Source: Escherichia coli
Lineage (GTDB): Bacteria > Pseudomonadota > Gammaproteobacteria > Enterobacterales > Enterobacteriaceae
DNA length: 9,120 nucleotides
Assembly: GCF_003334335.1 (NCBI RefSeq)
Contig: NZ_QOWQ01000067.1
Direction: 5' to 3' (one strand)
Shown in pieces: positions 44 through 1,858 of the stretch; the first letter of the stretch is position 1; each line of letters opens with the position of its first letter. The notes under the pieces were generated by a model, which searched no databases, had not been told where the DNA came from, and saw only the letters and a program-made list of their open reading frames with translations. Made by a program: the position numbers and the translations under genes.

Positions 44-1858
44 TTGGGTGTGGATCACTATTGCACCGTTCGTGACAATCAGCACGGAAACAAGATCAGT
101 CTGAATGAACAGCAAAGAAAGGCGTTTAACAAACTGGTCAATAATGGCCCTCTCTCCCTGCTTCAGGGGCCACCGGGGACCGGTAAAACCGAGTTCATCG
201 CGGCCTTTGTTCACTACCTGATCGAGAAACAGAATACCAAACGCATTTTACTGGTCAGCCAGTCACACGAGGCTGTGAATACAGCGGCCGAGCGTATCAG
301 AAAGCATTGTTCCCGGCTTGGTACAGAGTTGGACGTTGTCAGGTTCAGCAACCGAGAGGGAGCCGTTTCCCCTGGCTTAAAAGATGTGTACTCACACGCA
401 ATCACAACAGAGAAGCGCGAACTCTTCAATGCTGAAATTAAGTACCGTGTTGAAGCATTGAGTGAAGCTATTGGTCTGGAGCCGGGATTTATTTCGGGTG
501 TTGTTCTTGCAGAGCTCAATTTGTTCAGACAAATCGATCACCTTGAGAAATTGCTCTATCAGGTTAACAATTTAACGGATTCAAATGAGAGCAATGAACT
601 GAAAGATATTGCAGTCGAACTCGATTTTTCCATCCGCTCTAAGCTGAGTCAGGAGTATGGGATTAACTTGGACAAAGGCGTGAAGGTCTCAGCAGCAAAA
701 GACATTCTGATTTCCAAGCTATGTACAGAGTATGGTGTCAGACCTGATGAGGCAAGACGAGTAAAAGCAATAGCTAAAATATCCCGTGATATGCAGGATG
801 CTATGTCGGGAGAGCGAGTGAACCTGGACGAGTTTTATTCGCGCTCCAGACAGTTAGTGGCTGGCACATGCGTTGGTATTGGACAAGGGCACATTGGCAT
901 TCAGGAGAATATCTATGACTGGGTGATTATTGATGAGGCGGCGCGCTCGATTTCAAGTGAGCTGGCCATTGCAATGCAGTCAGCCCGGCGTGTCCTGTTG
1001 GTGGGTGACCACATGCAGCTTCCTCCATTGTACTCAGATGCCCACAAGGCGGCATTAGCGAGGAAGCTGGGTATCAATAACTCCCGCACTGAAATTGACG
1101 AGGTATTACGAAGTGACTTTGCCCGAGCCTTCAACTCTGCTTATGGTGCGCAGAAGAGTGCAGCTTTGATGACCCAGTATCGTATGGCTCCACCGATTGG
1201 TAATCTCGTATCGAAGACGTTTTATGACGGGAAGCTTCTGAATGGAGTACGGGCAATTCCGGATGTCTATCAGCAAGCTCCGGAAGCGTTACGTAGCGTT
1301 GTAACCTGGCTTGATACTGCTAATCAGGGCCACCGAGCACATCATCTTGAAGATCGCGGAACAAGCATTTACAACCGATGTGAAGCTGACGAGATTATTT
1401 CTGTTCTTAAACAGGTGTCAGAGAATGAAGAATTTGTCGCTAAGCTTTCAAAACTTGTTAGCAAAGATGAAGCCGCTATCGGCGTGATATGTATGTATGC
1501 CGAACAAAAGCGGTTACTCCGTCAGAAATTCAATCAGGAAATCTGGAGCGAGGGATTTAAGGACATTGTTAAAATTGACACTGTTGACAGTTATCAGGGA
1601 AAGGAAAATCGGATCATTATCCTGTCACTGACGCGTTCGGATAAGCAGCATAGCCCAGGTTTCTTACGCGTTCCAAACCGTATAAATGTCGCGATGTCAC
1701 GCGCAATGGATCGACTGTTGATTGTGGGTAATGCCGATATCTGGAAGGGAAACAATAAAGAATTGCCATTAGGCTACGTTGTAAGTTATATGGCTGCGCG
1801 AGGTCAGGAAGCTGGATACAGGTTCCTCTCTGCTCAGCAGGGAGGCAAAAAGAAATGA
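44..1858 (+). CDS. Superfamily 1B helicase, Upf1/DNA2-like (AAA_11/AAA_12-type core)
   Basis: 604-aa ORF with the full ordered SF1 motif set: Walker A GPPGTGKT (nt 167-190), motif Ia LLVSQSHEAV, Walker B DWVIIDEAA (nt 917-943), motif III GDHMQLPP (nt 1004-1027), motif IV QYRM (nt 1175-1186), motif V VDSYQGKE (nt 1584-1607), motif VI NVAMSRA (nt 1685-1705). Start is uncertain: TTG at 44 or GTG at 50, no in-frame ATG for ~245 codons, no clear SD, and an in-frame TGA at 32-34. Confidence 0.85.
   Translation: MGVDHYCTVRDNQHGNKISLNEQQRKAFNKLVNNGPLSLLQGPPGTGKTEFIAAFVHYLIEKQNTKRILLVSQSHEAVNTAAERIRKHCSRLGTELDVVRFSNREGAVSPGLKDVYSHAITTEKRELFNAEIKYRVEALSEAIGLEPGFISGVVLAELNLFRQIDHLEKLLYQVNNLTDSNESNELKDIAVELDFSIRSKLSQEYGINLDKGVKVSAAKDILISKLCTEYGVRPDEARRVKAIAKISRDMQDAMSGERVNLDEFYSRSRQLVAGTCVGIGQGHIGIQENIYDWVIIDEAARSISSELAIAMQSARRVLLVGDHMQLPPLYSDAHKAALARKLGINNSRTEIDEVLRSDFARAFNSAYGAQKSAALMTQYRMAPPIGNLVSKTFYDGKLLNGVRAIPDVYQQAPEALRSVVTWLDTANQGHRAHHLEDRGTSIYNRCEADEIISVLKQVSENEEFVAKLSKLVSKDEAAIGVICMYAEQKRLLRQKFNQEIWSEGFKDIVKIDTVDSYQGKENRIIILSLTRSDKQHSPGFLRVPNRINVAMSRAMDRLLIVGNADIWKGNNKELPLGYVVSYMAARGQEAGYRFLSAQQGGKKK

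Follow-up and report, generated by a model that had tools for sequence, protein, structure and literature searches.

Does the helicase encoded at 167-1705 of this stretch found a subfamily of its own, or does it belong to a family already described? We analysed a window of 9,120 nucleotides (the whole stretch of Escherichia coli DNA studied here), in which the first-pass annotation had reported a helicase with non-canonical motifs and a long insertion that may define a distinct subfamily.

At the motif level, all the reported helicase motifs were real. They are present in the +2-frame ORF 44..1858, occur in the order I, Ia, II, III, IV, V, VI and align to the Upf1 motifs, and the coordinates 167-1705 run exactly from the start of motif I to the end of motif VI. 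The motifs and domains were the following:

167-190, plus strand: motif I (Walker A), GPPGTGKT, from the ORF translation; invariant in 78 relatives
257-277, plus strand: motif Ia, SQSHEAV, from the ORF translation
932-943, plus strand: motif II (Walker B), DEAA, from the ORF translation
995-1027, plus strand: motif III, LLVGDHMQLPP, from the ORF translation and the relatives' alignment
1169-1186, plus strand: motif IV, TQYRM, from the ORF translation and the relatives' alignment
1586-1606, plus strand: motif V, DSYQGKE, from the ORF translation and the relatives' alignment
1688-1705, plus strand: motif VI, VAMSRA, from the ORF translation and the relatives' alignment
101-1030, plus strand: AAA_11 (RecA1 with the insertion), Pfam i-E 4.2e-38, query residues 68-377 against model positions 2-253 of 257 (query residue 1 is residue 1001 of MkoA, the intact protein described below)
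1109-1735, plus strand: AAA_12 (RecA2), holding motifs IV, V and VI, Pfam i-E 2.7e-42

The AAA_11 match spreads 252 model positions over 310 query residues. Judged by these profile matches, AAA_11 and AAA_12 are the domain pair of a Upf1-like SF1B helicase, and the fold is similar to that of solved members of this family. Neither Rfam nor a tRNA scan found anything in the window.

Motif Ia is a true variant, with a QSH core where Upf1 has PSN. Variants of motif Ia with S/T-H are also found in Dna2 and in nidovirus nsp13. Motif II had been listed as non-canonical too, but we rejected this, because DEAA fits DExx, the general SF1/SF2 Walker B consensus (10.1101/2025.07.10.664194), and the sister MkoA clade, with EETG, strays further from it. 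The distance between motifs Ia and II, given before as ~210 residues, was measured at 218 (nt 278-931, counted between the last residue of Ia and the first of II).

These features are not a peculiarity of the window sequence. Among 78 relatives with 37-95% identity, the motif Ia core S-Q-S/A-H-E-A-V-N was kept in nearly all, motif II was DEAA or DEAG in 77, and the Ia-II spacing ranged from 205 to 226 residues (median 217).

Regarding the gene itself, the helicase ORF is real, but its status as a fragment cut by an insertion sequence had been missed. Two features meet at its 5' side:

1-77, minus strand: terminal 77 bp of IS100 (IS21-family), istA-proximal end, 100% identical to the annotated IS100 end of strain 300444
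78-1858, plus strand: 3' fragment of mkoA, codons 1060-1652 of 1652 plus the stop, 99.9% nucleotide identity to NCTC86 (L001)

The IS100 end adjoins the mkoA fragment, and the copy that it matches, which bears istA and istB, lies at 8756-8832 of the strain 300444 locus (L002). Since nt 1-77 are IS100 end, the TTG taken as start (nt 44) belongs to IS100. A base-by-base comparison with NCTC86 placed the junction at nt 77/78, within codon 1060. In NCTC86, mkoA runs uninterrupted across this position: the gene is 4959 nt long, its 1652-aa product is annotated as "AAA domain-containing protein", and the helicase makes up the C-terminal third. By megablast against complete E. coli genomes, window positions 71-9120 were 99.9% identical to NCTC86; at the protein level, 591 of the 592 residues of the fragment are identical to NCTC86 MkoA, T1419K being the sole substitution. 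On this alignment, the IS100 insertion leaves the helicase without its start codon and cut off from the NERD and kinase modules. The IS100 genes are oriented away from the fragment.

The junction of the window was absent from 5,426 complete E. coli genomes. In strain 300444, IS100 splits the same gene elsewhere, at a site that corresponds to window nt 944-948, shortly past motif II.

The intact 1652-aa protein matched the PADLOC MkoA model PDLC03921 with 2204 bits over residues 1-1648 (profile positions 5-1603 of 1607), and the window fragment matched it with 973 bits (profile positions 1026-1603). The N-terminal 1060 residues of intact alleles, absent from the window, contain a NERD domain at 53-135 (Pfam) and resemble PglW and MAD6 kinases, with Pkinase matches at 577-657 (1.1e-05) and, weakly, at 270-446. 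Type I Mokosh, an anti-phage system, was described as a protein with a kinase and a COG1112 helicase (MkoA) and a separate MkoB, and its homology to Upf1 was already noted (Millman et al., 10.1101/2022.05.11.491447). In the same work, the SEC470 system (construct SG199, IMG 2720391838) is listed as "Verified", with a 1652-aa MkoA labelled "Kinase-Helicase" and a 478-aa MkoB labelled "HTH" (Millman et al. 2022, Tables S2, S8; 10.1101/2022.05.11.491447).

The link to this tested system was made through strain TUM1886. Its MkoA and MkoB are each identical at 399/399 of the residues printed for the SEC470 proteins (399 aa per protein), and over the helicase domain we infer the correspondence to SEC470 through TUM1886. 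The window fragment is identical to TUM1886 MkoA at 585 of 592 residues (98.8%, seven substitutions), and motifs I, Ia and II fall at the same residue numbers (1090, 1120, and 1345) in the window-type and TUM1886 proteins. Compared with SEC470 MkoA, the window copy thus shares the clade, the intact length of 1652 aa, the motif positions, and a 478-aa MkoB downstream; it differs in being cut at codon 1060 by IS100 and in the W339* change of its mkoB. The proposal of a distinct subfamily fails because the sequence is an allele almost identical to that of a defence protein already published and tested: it matches the type I Mokosh MkoA model end to end in its intact form, and the existing family essentially holds the same insertion and motif variants. 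As far as these alignments go, the helicase is already known. At least 80% of the 3.7-kb segment is present in about 312 of the 5,426 complete E. coli genomes. No NCBIfam model is specific to MkoA or MkoB of the long clade, and a PHROGs search gave nothing informative.

The other verified type I MkoA, from the enterotoxigenic strain H10407 (1215 aa, PADLOC PDLC03920), is also a kinase-helicase with a C-terminal Upf1-like helicase, a QSH-type motif Ia (AQSHATV), and MkoB downstream. However, its identity to the MkoA described here is 23-34% over aligned segments, EETG stands in place of DEAA as motif II, its Ia-II spacing is 118 rather than 218 residues, exactly 100 shorter, and canonical HKD motifs, absent from the 478-aa MkoB, occur twice in its 602-aa MkoB. 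With QSH in both MkoA clades and the long insertion in one, QSH is therefore, by this comparison of sequences, a hallmark of MkoA, and the long insertion marks the 1652-aa clade, for which PADLOC already has a separate model.

MkoC of type II Mokosh is an Upf1-like helicase of the same defence family, and the PADLOC MkoC model scored 121 bits from motif II onwards; this best-scoring stretch leaves out the part of RecA1 with the insertion. Unlike type I, with its separate MkoB, MkoC is a single polypeptide that includes the PLD domain, and in Bacillus megaterium its motif Ia (SSNNGAV) is of the PSN type, unlike QSH (Millman et al. supplement). The eukaryotic Upf1-like SF1B helicases UPF1/Nam7, IGHMBP2, and DNA2 have no kinase or NERD fusion. 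In chain coordinates of solved structures, counted from the motif I/Ia block to the motif II block, the unaligned Ia-II stretch is ~109 residues shorter than in the MkoA fragment for yeast and human Upf1, ~23 shorter for Chaetomium thermophilum SETX, and only ~16 shorter for yeast Sen1. Sen1 and SETX are eukaryotic transcription-termination helicases with ~20-25% identity to the MkoA fragment, and the insertion is likened to theirs by length and chain position.

To delineate the insertion, as the first-pass annotation had proposed, we ran AlphaFold2 on MkoA residues 1051-1652 (602 aa, 62 sequences; mean pLDDT 90.2, pTM 0.83). The model delimits a helical bundle and no barrel:

371-847, plus strand: all-helical insertion of ~160 residues, AlphaFold2 model residues 108-266 (MkoA 1158-1316)

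Helices were predicted at model residues 108-113, 115-135, 138-141, 145-174, 178-203, 215-228, 232-253, and 259-266. The insertion is flanked by the motif Ia helix and the next beta-strand (model 73-98) on one side and by the strand before motif II (269-273) on the other. We take its position in the chain to be that of Upf1 domain 1C and of the Sen1 "prong". In Upf1-like helicases, domain 1B lies N-terminal to motif I. The earlier description of a 1B/1C-type insertion is thus half right: because the insertion is all-helical, it would be a 1C or "prong"-type element only, and not 1B. Its equivalence to 1C is a matter of topology in the predicted model. A putative 1B barrel would be expected before motif I, in the part of MkoA (~880-1060) that IS100 has cut off. 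Conservation within the domain is lowest in the insertion, with a majority-residue fraction of 0.25-0.32 (model residues 161-240) vs. 0.7-0.8 near the motifs; the length of the insertion is conserved among relatives (147-168 residues).

Downstream, the window carries the partner gene:

1855-3291, plus strand: mkoB, 478 codons when intact, with a 4-nt overlap with the mkoA stop; PADLOC MkoB PDLC03923, 503 bits

A nonsense mutation, W339* (TGG to TGA at nt 2869-2871), interrupts it and removes the predicted PLD-like C-terminal domain. The ORF list shows 1855..2871 and 2953..3291 in the same frame because this stop splits one 478-codon gene. The G-to-A change at 2871 is the only difference from NCTC86 mkoB; all 300 complete genomes with the segment have a non-stop allele at this position, and the W339* allele was absent among the 5,426 complete E. 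coli genomes. Because the system carries two private inactivating lesions, IS100 in mkoA and W339* in mkoB, it is most likely non-functional in this strain, as read from the sequence. By comparison with intact alleles, the window copy is an IS100-truncated mkoA pseudogene beside a nonsense-mutated mkoB.

Regarding what MkoB is, the 478-aa protein was labelled "HTH" only (Millman et al., 10.1101/2022.05.11.491447). We found no Pfam domains in it or in 120 homologues, and a profile search against PDB sequences gave no true relative and one spurious match to a designed coiled coil. When compared by hhalign with the HKD-bearing 602-aa MkoB family, it aligned over the N-terminal ~200 residues only, with low probability. 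The AlphaFold2 model (pLDDT 75 overall, ~90 for residues 240-478) was searched with Foldseek: the N terminus gave winged-helix matches, and the C-terminal half gave weak but consistent matches to the PLD superfamily (vaccinia F13 at 4.5e-4, PLDs, NucT, Zucchini, Nuc, and FAM83). The invariant H422 and G436-F437 keep an HKD-like H-to-G spacing, with Ser in place of Lys and no Asp at +7.

As a separate observation, MkoB of the long clade lacks a canonical HKD motif, and a search of the 478-aa protein for HxKx4D found none. Since MkoB is without the catalytic Lys and Asp of HKD and the clade has NERD, cleavage might be the task of NERD; we offer the NERD domain of the long MkoA, as a speculation, as an alternative nuclease candidate to MkoB.

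At the mechanistic level, our search of the literature found no structure or biochemistry of type I Mokosh, and purification failed in one systematic study (10.1101/2025.07.10.664194). Mutation of the helicase ATP-binding site abolished Mokosh defence, the text leaving unspecified to which of the three systems this applies (Millman et al., 10.1101/2022.05.11.491447). T-even phages evade one type I Mokosh system, of a clade not stated, through DNA glucosylation and the Alt ADP-ribosyltransferase (10.1101/2025.11.20.689424), and domains of MkoA and MkoB are shared by the piRNA-pathway proteins MOV10L1 and PLD6 (10.1101/2022.12.12.520048).

In intact alleles, MkoA is built, from its N terminus, of NERD, two kinase-like domains, and the helicase, and MkoB, probably a winged helix plus a PLD-like domain, is translationally coupled downstream. 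We propose that the helicase would translocate 5'-3' at the expense of ATP, sense or process nucleic acid of the phage, and license the effector. The helical insertion could play the role of Upf1 1C or the Sen1 prong beside the nucleic-acid channel and may tune contacts with substrate or partners. In the window, with mkoA split by IS100 at codon 1060 and W339* in mkoB, the system is most likely dead or dying.

A more specific idea is that the ~160-residue insertion works as a sensor or docking module specific to the clade, whose target may be phage nucleic acid, a protein of the phage, MkoB or the kinase-like domains; this would give the long clade its own activation logic, with cleavage perhaps performed by NERD and not by a PLD nuclease. 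We consider this rather unlikely; if true, the long type I Mokosh clade would be activated by a logic of its own.

As a whole, we favour, with a probability of roughly 0.93, the MkoA helicase domain of the long type I Mokosh clade (1652-aa MkoA plus 478-aa MkoB), with a presumed translocase role, at a dead or dying locus. A free-standing helicase of ~600 aa, founding a new Upf1-like subfamily through QSH, DEAA and a novel 210-residue insertion, is hardly credible. A 604-codon ORF can indeed be drawn from the TTG at nt 44, the variants and the insertion are real, and solved Upf1-like structures offer no counterpart for ~160 residues; however, the IS100 end contains the TTG and the first 11 codons, intact alleles are 1652 aa long, and the MkoA model matches end to end, with 98.8% identity to an allele that agrees with the printed parts of SEC470. 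Moreover, QSH is common to the H10407 MkoA clade, and the Ia-II spacing of Sen1 and SETX is nearly the same. We rejected a stand-alone helicase gene on the strength of the IS100 junction and of the 1652-aa length of intact alleles.

The truncated gene could instead still yield a helicase-only product, started at the TTG at nt 44 or made by read-out of IS100, that retains some activity, e.g., as a dominant-negative or neofunctionalised protein. Consistent with this, the frame is open over nt 44-1858 with the seven motifs intact and one substitution against NCTC86 (T1419K), but no convincing start context was identified, the IS100 genes face away, and ~170 residues upstream of motif I that are homologous between the MkoA clades are lost (the PADLOC alignment starts at residue 878). 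The private nonsense mutation in the partner mkoB also fits a locus no longer under selection, as expected once selection is gone, and we regard an active fragment as highly improbable. That the Ia-II insertion also includes a 1B-type beta-barrel, so that both Upf1 accessory domains would be inserted there, is the idea that we find vanishingly improbable: 218 residues are long enough for two subdomains, but the model (pLDDT ~90 in this region) has helices only over residues 108-266, and 1B is generally placed N-terminal to motif I, i.e., upstream of the IS100 cut. We rejected a barrel within the insertion on the all-helical model.

The preferred reading, a decayed copy of a long-clade type I Mokosh system, leaves the discovery value small, since it is an inactivated copy of a known and verified defence protein. 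The initial interpretation was partly supported: it was right about an Upf1-like helicase with a helical accessory insertion, and wrong about novelty. At the annotation level, the RefSeq names "AAA domain-containing protein" and "hypothetical protein", and "DEAD/DEAH box helicase" for the IS-split pieces, should be replaced by mkoA and mkoB pseudogenes.

Finally, the two independent IS100 hits in mkoA, at different sites in two strains, are a small example of defence-system decay. The long Mokosh clade departs from the textbook description of "helicase + PLD nuclease", with an MkoB without HKD and a clade-specific helical insertion, which is useful for work on the mechanism of Mokosh.

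The Mokosh genes of this window and their surroundings include the following features:

Window 1-77: one end of an IS100 element (IS21 family), joined directly to mkoA at codon 1060.
Window 1855-3291: mkoB, equivalent to 10785-12221 in the NCTC86 comparison locus (L001).
Window ~3288-3700: remnant annotated as '16S rRNA methyltransferase', a pseudogene with an internal stop, at a G+C transition.
Window 3771-5684, minus strand: 637-aa ORF, 'enterotoxin' in RefSeq (WP_000757210.1).
Window 8547-8951, minus strand: truncated class II fructose-bisphosphate aldolase pseudogene, according to the NCTC86 annotation.
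Strain 300444 locus (L002), 6879-8832: IS100 within mkoA, at the site equivalent to window nt 944-948.

At the compositional level, G+C rises from about 45% over the Mokosh genes (nt 1-3500) to about 54-58% over nt 3500-8000, and the transition at the methyltransferase remnant is probably the edge of a mobile island that carries Mokosh. The intact mkoA alleles are located in an integrative island (upstream of the gene, L001 1-5700 and, at a further comparison locus, L004 1-7400) that encodes a tyrosine recombinase, a YfjI-family protein and an inovirus-type Gp2 protein, with a frameshifted archaeo-eukaryotic primase remnant ('TOTE conflict system') directly 5' of mkoA. On the other side of the transition, the 'enterotoxin' ORF adjoins a MalY/PatB-family gene and malX; its N terminus is signal-peptide-like, and a Pfam search returned zero matches, even at E <= 10.

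The mkoB gene carries a nonsense codon, W339* (TGG to TGA, window 2869-2871), which costs the product its PLD-like C-terminal domain; this allele was found in none of the 300 complete E. coli genomes with the segment. The PLD likeness is weak: residues 240-478 resemble PLD-superfamily proteins only by predicted fold, and neither an HxKx4D motif nor a Pfam domain was found in MkoB of the verified Mokosh clade to which the window belongs. H422 and G436 retain the HKD spacing; the Lys and Asp are absent. Compared with the HKD-bearing MkoB of H10407, no sequence relation was detectable outside the N-terminal ~200 residues.

For mkoA, nt 1155 is A vs. C in NCTC86, and residue 1419, five residues upstream of motif IV, is therefore K instead of the T present in both NCTC86 and TUM1886. 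Since an IS100 end occupies nt 1-77, the window begins within the insertion element; a 5-bp target duplication (ATCAG, nt 78-82) is expected at the mkoA junction, with the second IS100 end beyond the window. In strain 300444, IS100 lies immediately after motif II, flanked by a 5-bp duplication, and the mkoA piece downstream of it is labeled in RefSeq as a partial gene, 'DEAD/DEAH box helicase'. This insertion is independent of the one in the window, at a different site of the same gene. mkoA appears to be a recurrent target of IS100.
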